64,000 nucleotides of DNA from Candidatus Saccharimonadales bacterium (GTDB taxonomy: Bacteria > Patescibacteriota > Saccharimonadia > Saccharimonadales > UBA10212): the NCBI GenBank assembly GCA_049521895.1, contig JBEKOJ010000001.1, positions 226,717 through 290,716 of the forward strand, read 5' to 3'. Below the pieces are notes generated by a model that did no database searches, was not told the origin of the DNA, and saw only the letters and a program-made list of their open reading frames with translations. Shown in pieces: positions 18,666 to 59,079 of the stretch (positions within the stretch are counted from its first letter, which is position 1; every line of letters starts with the position of its first letter). Made by a program: the position numbers and the translations under genes.

Positions 18666-18782
18666 TGAAAAAAATTGTTCTCCAATTTTTTTAGTGTGTA
18701 GTTGATAGTTTTTAGTTAGTGGTTTTTGGGCTTGTTATTCACTACAAATTAAGCACTATCAACTATTTAATGATAGCATGGA

Positions 18783-31958: not shown

Positions 31959-32042
31959 AGTTTGTAGTTTGTAGTTTGTAGTTTGTAGTAGAAAAAGCAA
32001 AAAGATTACAACTGTAAACTGTAAACTGTAAACTGTAAACTG
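31959..32042. repeat. heptamer tandem repeats (AGTTTGT)x4 ... (ACTGTAA)x4
   Basis: Block 31959-31988 and block 32011-32042 are separated by 22 nt. On the plus strand the two blocks can pair using 5 Watson-Crick and 2 G.U pairs per heptad. Confidence 0.7.
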
Positions 32043-32045
32043 TTC

Positions 32046-39448: not shown

Positions 39449-40456
39449 TTAGCGCAACCTTGTTGGGTGGTAATTGGGTGGGGCAGATCTTAAATAATGG
39501 TTTATTTCGCCCTCGTCTAATAGGCCGGCTTGGGCGCCAACTTTTTGGACTACACTCATAGAATTGATTGGCGCCCATAGCAGCGCACCCTGGATATCGG
39601 CACCGCGCATAATGGCCGCCACGAAAGTAGAGGTAAAGGCATCACCGGCACCAGTGCGCTCATACGGTGGTTTAGGATCAGGGTAAATCGGCATTTTGTA
39701 ACGATTGGTGCCGTCGCTGGCATATGATCCAGCATGGCCATCGCTAATGACTACAATCTTCGGGCCAAGCTCGTGTAACTTATCGAGCAAGTCATGGATA
39801 TTATTGTGGTCACCGCTGGTAATAGTTGTCGCTTCTTCACGGTTAACCGCCAAAACTTCCGACCTCATGTAAATCCGCTTTAGACGGTGCGCGCCAGCCT
39901 CAATTTGGAAGGTCCCGGGTTGAAACGCTAATTTAACTAGCGGATGGCTCTCCAGCCAAGTTGCCAGCTGGTCATGATACTCAAGGCCATGTTTACTAAT
40001 AGAGCTAAAGTAGATCCACCCGGGGATATCCACGATACGAAAGCGTGGCCAGTGATAATCGTACTCCTCGTGTTTGATCAAAATAGTACGTTCTTCTTTG
40101 TACCACAACACGTAATGGTAGTTACTGAGTTTCCCCGGATTAATATGTATAAAACGGCGATCCACTTTAGCTGCATGCAAAGCTGTTAGAATATCCCGGC
40201 CATTGCTGTCGTCGCCGATATTAGAGACCAAGCCAGAACGAAGACCAAGTTTAGCAAAAGCCACCGATGCATTGCTAGCGTTGCCGACAGCTGGGACCAC
40301 TTCAACATGATCGAATGGCACCTTCGTGCCAAACGGTAAAGCCAGCCATAGTCCATCCGGCCGGTGCTCTACCCGTTCTTCATCATCAAACAGCCTAATA
40401 AAGGCATCCGTTACTACATCGCCGACACTTAAGACATCAAGTTGTTGCTGAGCCAT
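39449..40456 (-). CDS. PfkB-family carbohydrate kinase
   Basis: 335 aa with N-terminal VGDVV.D and the C-terminal signature RTGAGDAFTSTF. Confidence 0.8.
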   Translation of the reverse strand: MAQQQLDVLSVGDVVTDAFIRLFDDEERVEHRPDGLWLALPFGTKVPFDHVEVVPAVGNASNASVAFAKLGLRSGLVSNIGDDSNGRDILTALHAAKVDRRFIHINPGKLSNYHYVLWYKEERTILIKHEEYDYHWPRFRIVDIPGWIYFSSISKHGLEYHDQLATWLESHPLVKLAFQPGTFQIEAGAHRLKRIYMRSEVLAVNREEATTITSGDHNNIHDLLDKLHELGPKIVVISDGHAGSYASDGTNRYKMPIYPDPKPPYERTGAGDAFTSTFVAAIMRGADIQGALLWAPINSMSVVQKVGAQAGLLDEGEINHYLRSAPPNYHPTRLR

Positions 40457-40482
40457 AATCCTAACGGCTATTTTAGCATAAG

Positions 40483-40564
40483 CCCAGTAGTGAGCTTTCG
40501 AGATTATCCGTAAAGCGGATATTTAGCCCGCAAAAGCGGGCTGACTTGAAAGTCTACTACTGGG
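40483..40564 (+). mobile_element. ORF-less CCCAGTAG-terminus element (82 nt, three-way junction form)
   Basis: Sequence: CCCAGTAGTGAGCTTTCGAG...CTTGAAAGTCTACTACTGGG. The internal hairpins are ATCCG-TAAAG-CGGAT and AGCCCGC-AAAA-GCGGGCT. TAAG flanks both sides. Confidence 0.7.
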
Positions 40565-40574
40565 TAAGCCCATC

Positions 40575-41486
40575 TTAAGGTTGAGCTTTCCCGGCGGAAT
40601 TGAATGTTTCGATTTTTGATTCCACTACCGCTTGTACGGCACTGATGACTTGCGGCATTAGTTTGACGACAGCATATTCGGTCTTATTAGCAGCTAAAAC
40701 TTTTTCCAGCGTATCGCGGTAAGCCATGCGCATATCACTGTTGATATTAATTTTACTAACCCCAATCTTTACAGCCTCTATAAAGTAATGCGGTGGCGTG
40801 TCGCTGCCACCATGCAGACTGATATTGCAATCAATTGCCGAGCGGATTCTTTGCAGCAACTCCAGATCCAGAACCTTGGGTACCGGATAATGGCCGTGCA
40901 GGTTGCCGATAGCCGCGGCGAACGTGTCAATACCCGTGGCATCGACGAATGCCTTGGCAGCTTCCGGCGTACTAAAGGTTTTTTTGATTTCTTCATAATT
41001 AATGTCTTCGGTGTGGACGTTGCTGGAGCCACTAAAGTAGTGCGGCTCGGCCTCAACCAGCGCACCGGTAAATTTAGCTGCCTCCACCACCTCTTTAGTT
41101 TTGGCGATAATTTCGGCATCCGTGGCATCGTGGTTAGCCTGGCTAATATCAATGTGAATACACTCAAAACCGGCTTCGATGCCGGCAATCGCGTCTTCTA
41201 CGCTGGGGCTATGGTCTAGATTTACGTACATCTCCAGCCCGTACTGCGTCTTGTAGTTATCTACCATATCGCGGACATTGGGCAGTCCCATAGCATCCGC
41301 TTCGGTCTTGCTAACCTCCACCAGCACCGGAGCTTTTTTGGCTGCCGCGGCTTTTACCACAGCCACCAAAGTTTCCTGGTTATCGAGATTGAAAGCCCCC
41401 AGCGCAAAATGCTCCGCCCGAGCACGCGCAAAAGTCGCACGTGCCGTCTGGCAGTTGATTCTGATCTGTTGCAGTGTCAGTGGCAT
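40575..41486 (-). CDS. fba: class II fructose-bisphosphate aldolase
   Basis: 303 aa with FNLDNQE, LDHS, IHIDIS and LHGGSD, the ketose-bisphosphate aldolase class II pattern. Confidence 0.9.
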   Translation of the reverse strand: MPLTLQQIRINCQTARATFARARAEHFALGAFNLDNQETLVAVVKAAAAKKAPVLVEVSKTEADAMGLPNVRDMVDNYKTQYGLEMYVNLDHSPSVEDAIAGIEAGFECIHIDISQANHDATDAEIIAKTKEVVEAAKFTGALVEAEPHYFSGSSNVHTEDINYEEIKKTFSTPEAAKAFVDATGIDTFAAAIGNLHGHYPVPKVLDLELLQRIRSAIDCNISLHGGSDTPPHYFIEAVKIGVSKININSDMRMAYRDTLEKVLAANKTEYAVVKLMPQVISAVQAVVESKIETFNSAGKAQP

Positions 41487-43616: not shown

Positions 43617-43772
43617 CCCAGCAGTGAGCTTGCGAGATTATTCGATTCCCTTGGAGCCGTCAGCTCGTCAGCATCTCTTACGAAGACTGTAAGTCGGGAA
43701 CAGTTATGTTAGCGAGGCCTCGAATAATTAGCTCATGCGAGCGATGAGCTGACTCGAAAGTCTACTGCTGGG
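43617..43772 (+). mobile_element. ORF-less CCCAGCAG-terminus element (156 nt, expanded hairpin)
   Basis: Sequence: CCCAGCAGTGAGCTTGCGAG...CTCGAAAGTCTACTGCTGGG. The termini co-vary (T-A changed to C-G). The hairpins are ATTATTCGA-[69 nt]-TCGAATAAT and AGCTCAT-GCGAGCG-ATGAGCT. TTT flanks both sides, and the right terminus overlaps the rpe stop codon. Confidence 0.7.
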
Positions 43773-44406
43773 TTTCGTCGGCGATGCGTTGCAGAGCCGC
43801 GAAAGCCCGCGCCGGGTCTTCAGCTCTTTGGATATAACCGCCAACGTTTAGTACGTCCACGCCACCATTTATTAGCTCAGCAACATTTTGGTCATTAATA
43901 CCACCGTCCCAGCCCACTTCCAAATCAGGTTTATACTGTTTCAAAATACTTAACTTGTTAAGTAATTTAAGGTCGGCGTGGCTGCCGGTTTGGTAACCTA
44001 AATTACCGGAGAATATCAACACGTGGTCAATACTACTTAGCGCCGGCAGGATTGTTTCAGCCGGTGTCCGTTGCAACAGTGCCACACCAACCCCTACTTC
44101 ATGACGGTGGCAAAAGTTGGCAATATCCTCAAAACCGCCTTCGGCTTCGGCGTGAACTATTATCAGATTTGGCCGGTGCTCCATGATAGTTTGAACAGCT
44201 GGCATTGGATGGCGGTACATGAGATGAAAATCGGCTTTAACCCCCACCGGCCACCAAGCTTGCTCGGGCCTAACGGTACGGCTGGGTGCAAACTGCCCGT
44301 CTGTTAAATCAATCTGGATACGCTGGGCAAAATGGGCTATCTTGGCTATTTGTTGTCTGTATTCTTCTTCGCTGCCAGCTAAAATTGCCGGGCAAATAGT
44401 CGGCAT
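43762..44406 (-). CDS. rpe: ribulose-phosphate 3-epimerase
   Basis: 214 aa with a TIM-barrel pattern (ICPAILA, DLTDG, HLM, VHAE, GWDGG). The last codons, ACC CAG CAG TAG, are contributed by the inserted element terminus. Confidence 0.85.
   Translation of the reverse strand: MPTICPAILAGSEEEYRQQIAKIAHFAQRIQIDLTDGQFAPSRTVRPEQAWWPVGVKADFHLMYRHPMPAVQTIMEHRPNLIIVHAEAEGGFEDIANFCHRHEVGVGVALLQRTPAETILPALSSIDHVLIFSGNLGYQTGSHADLKLLNKLSILKQYKPDLEVGWDGGINDQNVAELINGGVDVLNVGGYIQRAEDPARAFAALQRIADETQQ
43947..43964. repeat. iterated palindrome copy (TACTTAAC-TT-GTTAAGTA)
   Basis: Perfect 8-bp arms inside rpe, reading CTT AAC AAG TTA AGT = LNKLS. Confidence 0.7.
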
Positions 44407-52552: not shown

Positions 52553-53574
52553 GGGAATTGCCTCAGGAATTTTAGATTGCCGCTATGAAAGTATCGAATG
52601 TCTTCGATGCCATACTTAAGCATCACTAGGCGATCTATGCCAAAGCCCCAAGCGAAACCGGTGTAAATTTTCGGGTCAATACTGCCTTCGCGCAGGACGT
52701 TCGGGTGGATCATGCCACAGCCGCCAAGCTCTATCCAGCCAGTATAGCTGCAGATATTGCAGCCTTTTTGGTCGCAGAAAATACAGCTGGCAGCGAATTC
52801 AAAACTTGGTTCGGTGAACGGGAAATAGAATGGTTGGATTTTGATTTTTATATCTTTCTGGTAGTAAGCGCTTAGCCAAGTTTTGATGGTTGCGACCAAG
52901 TGACCGGCATTGATGCCTTCATCGATATAAACGCCTTCCAGCTGATAGAAAGTGTGCTCGTGTCGGGCGTCAAGATCCTCGTTGCGGAAGACCCGGCCTG
53001 GTATGACAACGCGGATCGGCGGTTTTTGGCTTTTCATCACGCGGTTTTGCATGATGCTGGTGTGCGCCGGTGCAATCAGCCCTTCAGTAGTTACAAACGT
53101 GTCATACTCGTCGCGGGCCGGGTGCTCCGGCGGAAAATTCAGGCTGCTGAACATGTGGTAATCATCGTCAATCTCGCGTGATTCTACTACCGAAAATCCC
53201 ATCCGACCAAAGATATCTAAAATAATCTTTAATTCGGTGTTAATAGGGTGGCGGCTGCCGTTTTTGGCTGGCAATAACTCAGGGCGTTGGTCGACTGGAG
53301 TATTAATATCAAACGGCGCAGTAACATCGATAGTTTGTAGTTTGTAGTTTGTAGTTTGTAGGGATTCTCGAGTCAGGGATTCTAGGTCGGATTTGAGGTG
53401 ATTTACTTCTTTGCCAAAATCAGCTCGCGGCTTACCTGCCGGCAAAGTTTTAAGCCGGTCGTATAAAGCTGCCATCTCTGGTGCGCGTAAAATTGCCCGC
53501 TTATCTTCAAGCTTAGCAAGCTTATCTTTCAGCTGTTTGGCAGCCTTTGCGATCTCGGGATTTTTATACTCCAT
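52549..53574 (-). CDS. pheS: phenylalanine--tRNA ligase alpha subunit
   Basis: The start was trimmed to MEYKNPEIAK. Class II motifs are present (FRNEDLDARHEHTFYQLEG and GFAWGFGIDRL). The (TAGTTTG)x4 repeat at 53332-53361 encodes LQTTNYKLQT. Confidence 0.95.
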   Translation of the reverse strand: MEYKNPEIAKAAKQLKDKLAKLEDKRAILRAPEMAALYDRLKTLPAGKPRADFGKEVNHLKSDLESLTRESLQTTNYKLQTIDVTAPFDINTPVDQRPELLPAKNGSRHPINTELKIILDIFGRMGFSVVESREIDDDYHMFSSLNFPPEHPARDEYDTFVTTEGLIAPAHTSIMQNRVMKSQKPPIRVVIPGRVFRNEDLDARHEHTFYQLEGVYIDEGINAGHLVATIKTWLSAYYQKDIKIKIQPFYFPFTEPSFEFAASCIFCDQKGCNICSYTGWIELGGCGMIHPNVLREGSIDPKIYTGFAWGFGIDRLVMLKYGIEDIRYFHSGNLKFLRQFP

Positions 53575-56031: not shown

Positions 56032-56155
56032 CCCAGTAGTAGACTTTCTGTTGGCTATTCGCCAAAACTTACTTACTTCTATATTTTACCTGCCAAGTAT
56101 AGCTTTGTTATATACACTGTTCACTGCGAAACAGCACAGAAAGCTCACTACTGGG
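56032..56155 (-). mobile_element. ORF-less element, apparent internal-deletion derivative of the GIY-YIG copy
   Basis: The minus strand reads CCCAGTAGTGAGCTTTCTGTGCTG...AGCCAACAGAAAGTCTACTACTGGG. The subterminal sequence matches 58349-58661. It is flanked by CATG on one side and TATG on the other, and the TATG holds the rmuC start codon. Confidence 0.7.
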
Positions 56156-57444: not shown

Positions 57445-57460
57445 CGTGTTCTTAATTATA

Positions 57461-57547
57461 CCCAGTAGTAGACTTTTGAGCGAGCCCGCATGTCTGCGGG
57501 CTCATATATCCACCGGGGATGGATAATCTCAAAAGCTCACTACTGGG
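57461..57547 (-). mobile_element. ORF-less CCCAGTAG-terminus element (87 nt, three-way junction form)
   Basis: The minus strand reads CCCAGTAGTGAGCTTTTGAG...CTCAAAAGTCTACTACTGGG. The hairpins are ATCCATC-CCC-GGTGGAT and GAGCCCGC-AGACAT-GCGGGCTC. TATAA (TTATA on the plus strand) flanks both sides. Confidence 0.7.
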
Positions 57548-57554
57548 TTATACC

Positions 57555-58333: not shown

Positions 58334-58339
58334 TACAAT
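58334..58339 (+). promoter_or_regulatory. putative -10 box TACAAT (original fur-family promoter, leaderless type)
   Basis: TACAAT-ATTGAT-ATG. This ATG (58346) is now fused in frame to the GIY-YIG ORF. Confidence 0.4.
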
Positions 58340-58345
58340 ATTGAT

Positions 58346-58660
58346 ATGCCTAGTAGTGAGCTTTCTATAGTGTTCTGCTATGTCTACGTTTTATACTCTA
58401 ATGTCAGCAAGAGCTTCTATGTAGGTTTTACGCATGATCTTAAGAAGAGGATTGCAGAACACAATAAGGGCTTAATTTTTTCTACAAAAGGCTATAAGCC
58501 CTGGGAGTTAATTTATTACGAGGCGCATGCTAAAGAGGCAGACGGCAGACGCCGTGAAAAATATCTAAAGACCACGGCAGGGGATAGAGCTTTACATAGA
58601 ATGCTTAGAGGGAAGCTGACTGAGGTGAAAAATTTAAGCCGACAGAAAGTCTACTACTAG
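58346..58660 (+). CDS. GIY-YIG nuclease family protein (small COG2827/UPF0213-like)
   Basis: YVYVLYS-x6-FYVGFT-DLKKRIAEHNKG...ELIYYE...REKYLKT matches the GIY-YIG pattern. The tracked ATG (58346) is the duplicated host start codon, and an internal GTG at 58370 is an alternative start. The stop TAG lies inside the right terminus. Confidence 0.85.
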   Translation: MPSSELSIVFCYVYVLYSNVSKSFYVGFTHDLKKRIAEHNKGLIFSTKGYKPWELIYYEAHAKEADGRRREKYLKTTAGDRALHRMLRGKLTEVKNLSRQKVYY

Positions 58661-58661
58661 G
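58349..58661 (+). mobile_element. ORF-bearing CCTAGTAG-terminus element (GIY-YIG nuclease cargo)
   Basis: CCTAGTAGTGAGCTTTC...GAAAGTCTACTACTAGG encloses a single ORF. A TATG direct duplication flanks it (58345-58348 and 58662-58665). Confidence 0.75.
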
Positions 58662-58662
58662 T

Positions 58663-59079
58663 ATGCAACACAACACTCTTAAAGCGCTTTTAAAGAAAGA
58701 CGGCGCCAGTCTGACTAAGCCACGCAAAATCGTATTTGACCTGTTACTCAACCAGGAGCCACAGAGTATGAAAGTTTTGACCCAGAGGGCTGCCGGCAAA
58801 GTTGACCGGGCGACCGTTTATCGCACCGTGGAGCTATTTGAGCGTTTAGGTATTGTCCACCGCTTAAATATCGGCTGGAAATATAAAATGGAGCTAAGTG
58901 ACGTATTTCATGCCCACCACCACCATTTTTATTGCACCAATTGCAATAAAACATACCCCTTGCCCGCCAACCCTATGCTAGAGACCATGATAGATAGCAC
59001 GGTGGCCAAGGACGGTTTCTCGCCACGCGGCCATCAACTAGAAGTTTACGGCCTATGCGCCCAGTGTTCTCGCGGCTAA
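58663..59079 (+). CDS. Fur family transcriptional regulator (Zur-like by context)
   Basis: 138 aa with a winged helix, then HHHHFYCTNC and CAQC metal sites. It is divergent from zupT. Confidence 0.85.
   Translation: MQHNTLKALLKKDGASLTKPRKIVFDLLLNQEPQSMKVLTQRAAGKVDRATVYRTVELFERLGIVHRLNIGWKYKMELSDVFHAHHHHFYCTNCNKTYPLPANPMLETMIDSTVAKDGFSPRGHQLEVYGLCAQCSRG

Follow-up and report, generated by a model that had tools for sequence, protein, structure and literature searches.

Bacterial MITEs (miniature inverted-repeat transposable elements), e.g. the Correia elements of Neisseria, the pneumococcal RUP and ERIC, are non-coding, multi-copy and mostly intergenic DNAs of ∼70-160 nt, with terminal inverted repeats, short target duplications and long hairpin folds. 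Integron attC sites fold as single strands, conserve a structure while their sequence is free, and use unpaired stem bases as a landmark. Slx1, related to the stand-alone UPF0213 proteins (COG2827, YhbQ-like) and consisting of the same minimal GIY-YIG domain without a DNA-binding extension, cuts branched DNA, while the genes of GIY-YIG homing endonucleases (I-TevI, phage seg genes) are selfish inserts wedged between host genes. A 2006 survey of the GIY-YIG superfamily described the prokaryotic Slx1-like stand-alone proteins as vertically inherited and of repair type, and traced the selfish GIY-YIG genes to the UvrC-like lineage (PMC1564403). In the REPIN-RAYT system (hairpin-forming doublets of repetitive extragenic palindromes (REPs) and their REP-associated tyrosine transposases), where many short copies and one or a few coding copies have repeats in common and the doublets carry GTAG/CTAC near their ends, compensatory evolution of the stems has been reported (Bertels and Rainey 2011, PMC3116915; Di Nocera 2013, PMC3733652). 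Here we describe elements resembling each of these systems in part, found in a 64-kb stretch of a Candidatus Saccharimonadales genome (the window; coordinates without a locus name are counted from its first letter). The subject of a first-pass annotation of this DNA was an 82-nt element, E1 (40483-40564). The short elements of its family are mobile, MITE-like DNA with 4-bp target duplications, and a minimal GIY-YIG gene of Slx1 type accompanies the family and diverges along with it. We put the probability at roughly 0.5 that E1 is non-autonomous MITE-like DNA of a superfamily of tiny elements with terminal inverted repeats in Patescibacteria (the Candidate Phyla Radiation, CPR), recognised as folded DNA, probably by the nuclease of its own family.

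Copies in the window and their conserved fold

Five copies of one element family are present in the window: three short ones, one decayed copy of the full-length type and one full-length copy. The first-pass annotation had correctly located three of them (at 40483, 57461 and 43617), each a 20-bp terminal helix around two hairpins, and the hairpin and terminus variants that it quoted are accurate. The single architecture which it assigned to these three copies stands, but the family also includes two further copies in the window, E3 (56032-56155) and E5 (58349-58661).

E1 (plus strand) separates the stop codon of the aldolase gene from the start codon of pfkB, and is antisense to both. It starts with CCCAGTAGTGAGCTTTCGAG, ends with CTTGAAAGTCTACTACTGGG, and is flanked by the target-site duplication (TSD) TAAG (40479-40482 and 40565-40568). 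Its closing helix pairs 40483-40502 with 40545-40564 and encloses hairpin A (40505-40521) and hairpin B (40523-40544). A conserved purine/pyrimidine bubble (G.T, A.C, G.T), nine base pairs from the tip, is formed by GAG in the left terminal repeat (40492-40494, plus strand) and the opposing TCT (40553-40555). E2 (156 nt, 43617-43772, plus strand) has the termini CCCAGCAG / CTGCTGGG and the TSD TTT. The loop of its hairpin A carries a single-copy insertion of 74 nt (rather than the 69 nt originally given), and its right repeat provides the last three codons and the TAG stop of rpe (minus strand, 43762-44406). E4 (87 nt, 57461-57547, minus strand) folds as a three-way junction, has the TSD TTATA (57456-57460 and 57548-57552), and lies between zip and ykuD, sense to both genes. 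E5 is the full-length element (313 nt, plus strand), with the terminal repeats CCTAGTAGTGAGCTTTC ... GAAAGTCTACTACTAGG, and has 16 of the first 17 repeat bases in common with E1. E3 (124 nt, minus strand; ends ...GAGCTTTCTGT / ACAGAAAGTC...) is a decayed, internally deleted derivative of the full-length type, placed exactly on the rmuC start codon and flanked by CATG / TATG on the element's strand.

As RNA, E1 has a minimum free energy of -49.5 kcal/mol (z = -10.8) and the minus strand of E4 one of -53.8 kcal/mol (z = -11.6), both in the form of a 20-bp closing helix with one mismatch and two hairpins; the centroid fold of E2 has the same architecture. Covariation was measured with a hand-written three-helix structure on 19 copies that MAFFT had aligned without reference to any structure. 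Standard pairs make up 93.9% of the cells, compared with 35-40% after sliding of the 3' partners by 1-3 columns, both sides have changed in 16 of the 34 pairs, and none of 500 shuffles matches the observed value on any of five measures. The same picture emerges when 94 matches, with both strands of each copy among them, are aligned by fitting to the model; this alignment serves only as a secondary count because the covariance-model search matches both strands of every copy and so mixes polarities. Individual positions illustrate the variety of pairs: among 41 copies, position 19 of the closing helix is A-T in 22, C-G in 15, T-A in three and a mismatch in one, and position 17 is C-G in 33 and T-A in five. 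The inner 7-8 bp of this helix vary freely in sequence, with complementarity kept within single genomes. A closing helix and two hairpins are also formed by short copies from other repeat families (CGGGGTAGTGAAAATTGGGC..., CAGGGTAGTGAATTTTGGCG..., CCCGGAAGTGAGCC...), whose sequences are unrelated.

The maintenance of intrastrand pairing as the sequence changes, first proposed from three copies, is borne out by these data for the inner closing helix and for both hairpins. Chance or purely recent copying, the latter named at the time as an alternative, is untenable because of the many distinct pair types and the convergence of unrelated families. Plain protein-binding terminal repeats would not predict maintained pairing of variable stems, as had also been argued, which implies a role for some folded form, whether single-stranded or extruded. 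Among the copies, loops and junctions are free to vary and show no conserved unpaired nucleotides able to form a catalytic core, and the hairpin modules look shuffled.

The first-pass annotation had gone on to propose selection on a form of defined polarity, by implication RNA. This part of the proposal is not upheld: the bias is confined to positions 10-12, while G.U counts of the variable stems are balanced, gene orientation is random and interiors are found either way round. The strand beginning CCCAGTAGTGAGC is the stabler one in 36 of 43 copies, by a mean of 4.2 kcal/mol, and the difference is -3.0 kcal/mol for the closing helix alone and -0.7 +/- 3.4 kcal/mol for the interior alone (22 versus 17 copies). 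Counted alike on the sense and antisense strands, G.U pairs number 31 and 23 in the hairpins and 7 and 6 in the inner closing helix, and only the fixed positions 10 and 12 differ in G.U between strands. Positions 10-12 are G.U, A.C, G.U on the 'good' strand and A.C, G.U, A.C on its complement; the conserved G.U pairs reported for the former are thus present, but the same strand also has an A.C mismatch between them. The fixed mismatch bubble at positions 10-12 of the terminal repeats is the sole source of strand asymmetry, and the variable parts have no detectable strand polarity. Under DNA parameters the two strands differ little in folding energy (-25.9 versus -23.6; -30.2 versus -29.0), and the DNA centroid structures of both strands contain a 3x3 bubble at positions 10-12.

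Between co-directional genes, seven copies lie in sense and eight in antisense orientation. The interior of the copy at locus L063 is the reverse complement of the L061 interior (score 25.5 versus -1.5), and interiors are flipped relative to the asymmetric termini in at least three further copies. The coincidence of the better-pairing strand with the sense strand of the GIY-YIG open reading frame (ORF) holds in full-length Saccharibacteria copies, but ORF direction flips in sister families: the gene is read from the AGTGA end or from the AGTAG end, and its direction relative to this asymmetry of the termini differs both between and within families (L122 and L131 versus L110 and L121). Searches of Rfam 15 at gathering thresholds gave zero matches over the whole window, and those at E up to 10 gave only chance-level matches in the region 40400-40650, in agreement with the lack of a match to small ribozymes that was reported earlier. 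No terminator-like site was scored inside E1 or E4, and the idea that their hairpins are terminators was rejected on this ground.

Distribution and insertion of the short elements

The collection searched holds one genome for each of 185,579 species. A two-terminus sequence pattern was adopted since the right-terminus 16-mer alone gave chance matches (56 in viral contigs, none of them with a nearby left terminus). The pattern gave 38 matches in 36 loci, all in MAGs (metagenome-assembled genomes) of Candidatus Saccharibacteria, Saccharimonadales or Patescibacteria, and no match in shuffles of the window; the occurrence of the element is far beyond chance. Outside the window, 40 distinct short copies of 71-94 nt were collected from at least 15 Candidatus Saccharibacteria genomes, and looser searches and the covariance model yielded a few additional ones. 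Almost all short copies fold as a 20-bp closing helix with two hairpins. They are non-coding and multi-copy, with three in the 64-kb window alone; the possibility that they act as in-frame inserts was rejected, their lengths being spread over all classes modulo 3.

Perfect 4-bp target duplications flank 28 of the 43 short copies. Four others have a 5-bp and four a 3-bp duplication, while seven lack a perfect duplication, in several cases through a single mismatch within the 4-mer. The target reconstructed from the sites is a palindrome, G-YWWR-C: of 28 cases, all have Y, 27 have R, and the flanking G and C are present in 19 and 17, respectively. A filled site in another Saccharibacteria genome (L078:2156-2238, CTTG on both sides) is orthologous to an empty target site in the window, G CTTG C, which has a single CTTG (63174-63177, minus strand); the two were compared by local alignment, a global MAFFT alignment having misaligned them. 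This difference in presence between two Saccharibacteria genomes at one orthologous site and the flanking duplications show that insertion took place. The empty site sits in the loop of a host inverted repeat, TCCCGTTAGAACC ... GGTCTAACGGGA (63128-63232), which is conserved in L078 around the filled site.

Inheritance of the flanking 4-mer along with the element (the 'cohesive-end' idea) was rejected for the short copies, among which close relatives differ in their 4-mers. The duplicated segment of one sister family ranges in length from ∼3 to 9 bp. Full-length copies were also followed: one of them, P0056, for which 25 carrying contigs were read, was used to look for an identical full-length copy at several sites, and all 10 places listed, each from a different sample, proved to be a single locus.

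Several further arrangements of elements were observed. At L130:2921-3400, L127 and L137:380-420, elements stand head to tail, separated only by a shared 4-mer (TGGA or TATG), and it looks as if each insertion regenerates the target for the next. A unit made of a short element and ∼14 nt of DNA to its left and right (…gaggtgCTTA, element, CTTAtgcttgca) is found four times in two genomes (L081:1926-2035, L092:255-367, L094:4339-4447 and L094:5070-5182). Hairpin B of the L081 copy differs from that of the L092 and L094 copies, and L081 exceeds L092 by 1.6 kb of DNA on one side and 0.55 kb on the other. Orthology of these loci, as the same site with a different hairpin B, is not claimed because BLAST shows the element and flank to be repeated and L081 to have extra DNA on both sides. 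A second short-element family (L063:5915-5987 and L093:2258-2340) has different, fully symmetric termini, CCCAGCACCTAGC ... GCTAGGTGCTGGG, and the 4-bp duplications TTTG and TTTA; its interior starts with GAGATTAT, as does that of the E1 type.

Full-length elements and the Slx1-type nuclease

The GIY-YIG ORF of E5 (58346-58660, plus strand) encodes 104 aa (PF01541, E = 2.4e-16). Its ATG is contributed by the left TSD copy, and residues 2-7 (PSSELS), the C-terminal KVYY and the TAG stop are written in the terminal repeats; a shorter form of 96 aa would begin at the GTG at 58370. A database search found 614 homologues, most of exactly 104 aa, whose ends, MPSSELS at the start and QKVYY at the end, are encoded by the repeats. 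At the catalytic positions, Y12, Y14 and Y25 (the tyrosines in GIY and YIG), G27 and E71 do not vary, and R35 hardly does. By sequence the nuclease falls in the Slx1/UPF0213 cluster of stand-alone GIY-YIG proteins, the nearest solved proteins being UPF0213 BH0048 (1zg2), EF2693 (1ywl) and the structure-specific endonuclease SLX1; a profile search gave ∼17,000 clusters (50% identity) of such small proteins at E up to 0.001. The protein is a single domain with no separate DNA-binding domain, and its score against the group I intron endonuclease model (24.8) is under the cut-off of 56. This only ORF of E5 matches no recognised transposase family. In all families examined, the GIY-YIG gene is the sole ORF between such repeats, and 315 kb of copy-rich Saccharibacteria DNA yielded no longer element carrying these repeats. 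A reverse-transcriptase gene (RVT_1, L001:19536-20417) lies ∼4 kb past the end of the window on the same contig, with no link to the elements seen.

A common layout with different repeats was found at 80 metagenomic loci encoding relatives of the nuclease (L095-L174). The repeats are CCTAGTAGTGAGCTTTCTGT... in the Saccharibacteria clade and CCAGGTAGTGAAAATTCGA..., CCCGTAGTAGATTTTTAATT... or CCCGGAAGTGAAAC... in more distant clades, and repeat families track protein clades. Arm identity is 96% within an element, outside positions 10-12, versus 68% between elements, and 71 distinct arm pairs are represented. The two ends of an element differ in a fixed manner, with one AGTGA end and one AGTAG end in 114 of 115 repeat pairs; the remaining pair is made up of ends from two neighbouring elements. 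In either version a stop codon reading inward is retained in the same frame (TGA or TAG, often preceded by TAG), and the TAG borne by the repeat of E2 does terminate rpe (43762-43772). Such stops do not account for the required difference of the two ends.

Full-length elements are usually flanked by TATG on both sides, the nuclease ORF beginning at the left ATG. They occur almost exclusively where a duplicated TATG contains a host start codon, and across CPR bacteria ∼80% of them have exactly this position. The ATG of a host ORF (counted if of at least 75 codons or running off the contig, and in the same direction as the nuclease gene) lies within a few bases of the right end in ∼46 of the 58 full-length elements listed, and in the commonest, TATG-flanked type the distance from the right end to the host ATG is 1 nt. 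In the Saccharibacteria clade the TAG stop of the nuclease gene is in the right repeat, 2 nt upstream of the host ATG. The downstream host genes differ between genomes; those in the window are fur and rmuC. For E5, the TSD is TATG (58345-58348 and 58662-58665), and the ATG of its right copy (58663) is the fur start codon. A promoter-like TTGCAA-16-TACAAT ends at 58339, 6 nt ahead of the left ATG of E5, and many of the host genes at full-length elements have a -10-like box 6-11 nt upstream. Both observations suggest leaderless transcripts.

The window also contains repeats of other kinds. An 18-nt palindrome, TACTTAACNNGTTAAGTA, occurs seven times (0.01 expected), mostly within ORFs (at 1871, 4279, 21298, 26100, 36448, 43947 and 62063), and could be an uptake-signal-like or protein-binding motif. 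Intergenic arrays of tandem heptamers lie at 724-753, 18693-18722, 31959-31988, 32010-32044 and 53331-53361; (AGTTTGT)4 is present at two places, as one and the same 30-mer, with (CTGTAAA)5 nearby.

Proposed mechanism, rival explanations and known systems

In the mechanism that we propose, the nuclease would be expressed from the left ATG by a host promoter, to judge from the sequence around the insertion sites. Translation would end at the right-repeat TAG, leaving 2 nt to the host ATG, and a coupled restart may follow at the host gene. Selection would act on a DNA fold, rather than on a transcript of one strand. The selected shape would comprise a closing helix of ∼20 bp, a purine/pyrimidine bubble of 2-3 nt (positions 10-12) and, in the short copies, an interior of two hairpins of arbitrary sequence. 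The two-hairpin interior leaves almost no unpaired loop, and the 20-bp stem can therefore form on either strand; single-stranded DNA of either strand might adopt the shape, or the two strands might do so together in a cruciform. Recognition of this fold, and cutting where it joins the flanking DNA, would probably be the work of the family's own structure-specific nuclease. A hydrolytic nuclease cannot itself join DNA, so integration must be assigned to host functions, with repair or ligation by the host finishing the transposition. A resident full-length copy would mobilise the short ones in trans. Taken together, these steps would amount to a new class of prokaryotic transposable element, in which an Slx1-type nuclease, without a DDE, HUH, serine or tyrosine recombinase, mobilises DNA recognised by its shape, and in which autonomous copies parasitise start codons. 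We advance this broader claim tentatively; its chance of being right is substantial, but it is more likely to be wrong.

A number of observations weigh against this account. To our knowledge, no hydrolytic GIY-YIG nuclease performs strand transfer. The account does not explain the AGTGA/AGTAG asymmetry of the ends, and the variation of the duplicated segment in one sister family fits poorly with a single fixed staggered cut. Full-length copies may be nearly immobile, since P0056 holds one locus in all of the places listed. Kinship among the copies inflates the shuffle-based covariation statistics, and complementarity of the hairpins could be produced by mismatch correction within them, instead of by selection. 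Finally, the DNA inspected amounts to ∼0.63 Mb around known copies, and a conventional transposase with the same repeats may lie elsewhere in the genomes.

This last point is the starting point of an explanation in which the short copies are ordinary double-stranded MITEs of a conventional transposase encoded elsewhere, with the GIY-YIG gene as a passenger and the hairpins as unrecognised by-products, e.g. of template switching or mismatch correction in palindromes. Terminal repeats, 4-bp duplications and a palindromic target are the products expected of a DDE transposon, only a small part of each genome was inspected, and hairpin modules do appear shuffled between copies. We nevertheless consider it unlikely. 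The copy-rich 315 kb of Saccharibacteria DNA contain no longer element with the repeats, and across many divergent repeat families the GIY-YIG gene is the sole cargo, with its coding sequence extending into both repeats and diverging with them. The inner 7-8 bp of the closing helix vary yet stay complementary in single genomes, and unrelated families converge on the two-hairpin interior. The view of the elements as host-serving hairpins (terminators, mRNA stabilisers or protein-binding sites) that merely resemble mobile DNA draws on the intergenic position of the copies, often a few bases from gene ends. It is the least probable explanation of those considered here, given that E1 and E4 contain no scored terminator-like site, that orientation to neighbouring genes is random, and that orthologous presence/absence and the duplications show insertion.

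Strand-specific structured RNA was the direction in which the first-pass annotation pointed. The strand beginning with the sequence given above would then be a functional three-way-junction RNA, with candidate roles as a cis-regulator, a processing signal (the 20-bp stem being one for RNase III) or a small ribozyme. The very stable RNA folds (z of -10.8 and -11.6), the greater stability of the sense strand in 36 of 43 copies, its identity with the mRNA strand in full-length Saccharibacteria copies and the strong covariation all fit such an RNA. Its strand bias, however, is limited to the fixed positions 10-12, G.U counts in the variable stems are symmetric, copies lie sense and antisense to genes in 7 and 8 cases, interiors occur inverted relative to the termini, and ORF direction flips against the asymmetry in sister families; Rfam has no match, and loops and junctions that vary freely leave no conserved unpaired candidate for a catalytic core. 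On balance an RNA function is quite improbable. Still more so is a REPIN/RAYT-like system, in which inverted pairs of GTAG-tagged palindromes would be moved as single-stranded DNA by a domesticated single-copy enzyme kept by the host. GTAG/CTAC near both ends and a long imperfect hairpin recall the GTAG-tagged REPs (PMC3733652), many short copies accompany few full-length ones, and P0056 keeps the same locus in all 10 listed places, each from a different sample. Insertion here makes target duplications, though, and the empty site has a single 4-mer; the enzyme that goes with the repeats is of the GIY-YIG and not the Y1 HUH type; and GTAG (positions 5-8) takes part in pairing within the repeat and gives way to GCAG or GAAG in some copies.

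If the nuclease does mobilise these elements, it would add a further catalytic class to bacterial transposition, define a transposon end by DNA shape instead of sequence, and give a selfish role to stand-alone Slx1-like GIY-YIG proteins (∼17,000 clusters), hitherto treated as repair proteins. The start-codon position would offer a compact route for expression of an insert while the host gene may still be translated, and it bears on gene calling and leaderless translation in CPR genomes. For annotation, the repeats of this family (70-160 nt) in Saccharibacteria MAGs are better masked as mobile DNA than taken for small RNAs. A non-exhaustive search of the literature found no description of repeat-bounded GIY-YIG elements in CPR bacteria, and the family is apparently undescribed so far.

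In comparison with the nearest known systems, Slx1/UPF0213 proteins as described differ from the E5 nuclease in the setting of the gene, which is here bounded by repeats and found at different host genes in different genomes. Homing endonucleases of the GIY-YIG type have a long DNA-binding domain, ignore their own DNA, and lack terminal repeats, target duplications and miniature derivatives. The attC sites are strictly strand-specific and are recombined by a tyrosine recombinase at R'/R'' core sites, whereas no strand preference is detected here and the stem closes the whole element; the attC core sites (RYYYAAC / GTTRRRY) are absent from the termini CCCAGTAG / CTACTGGG. REPINs and IS200/IS605-type elements, as far as we know, make no target duplications, and the present family further departs from REPIN-RAYT in its GIY-YIG protein in place of the Y1 HUH enzyme, its paired and variable GTAG, and the position of the coding copy on host start codons. 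In contrast to bacterial MITEs, whose partner is an insertion sequence with a DDE transposase, the partner here is a 313-nt unit with only a ∼100-aa GIY-YIG nuclease, the interior has a conserved two-hairpin architecture of free sequence, and the ends differ by the fixed AGTGA/AGTAG swap. The short copies thus resemble, in anatomy, MITEs with an unusual partner and, in population structure, REPINs with a single-copy partner.

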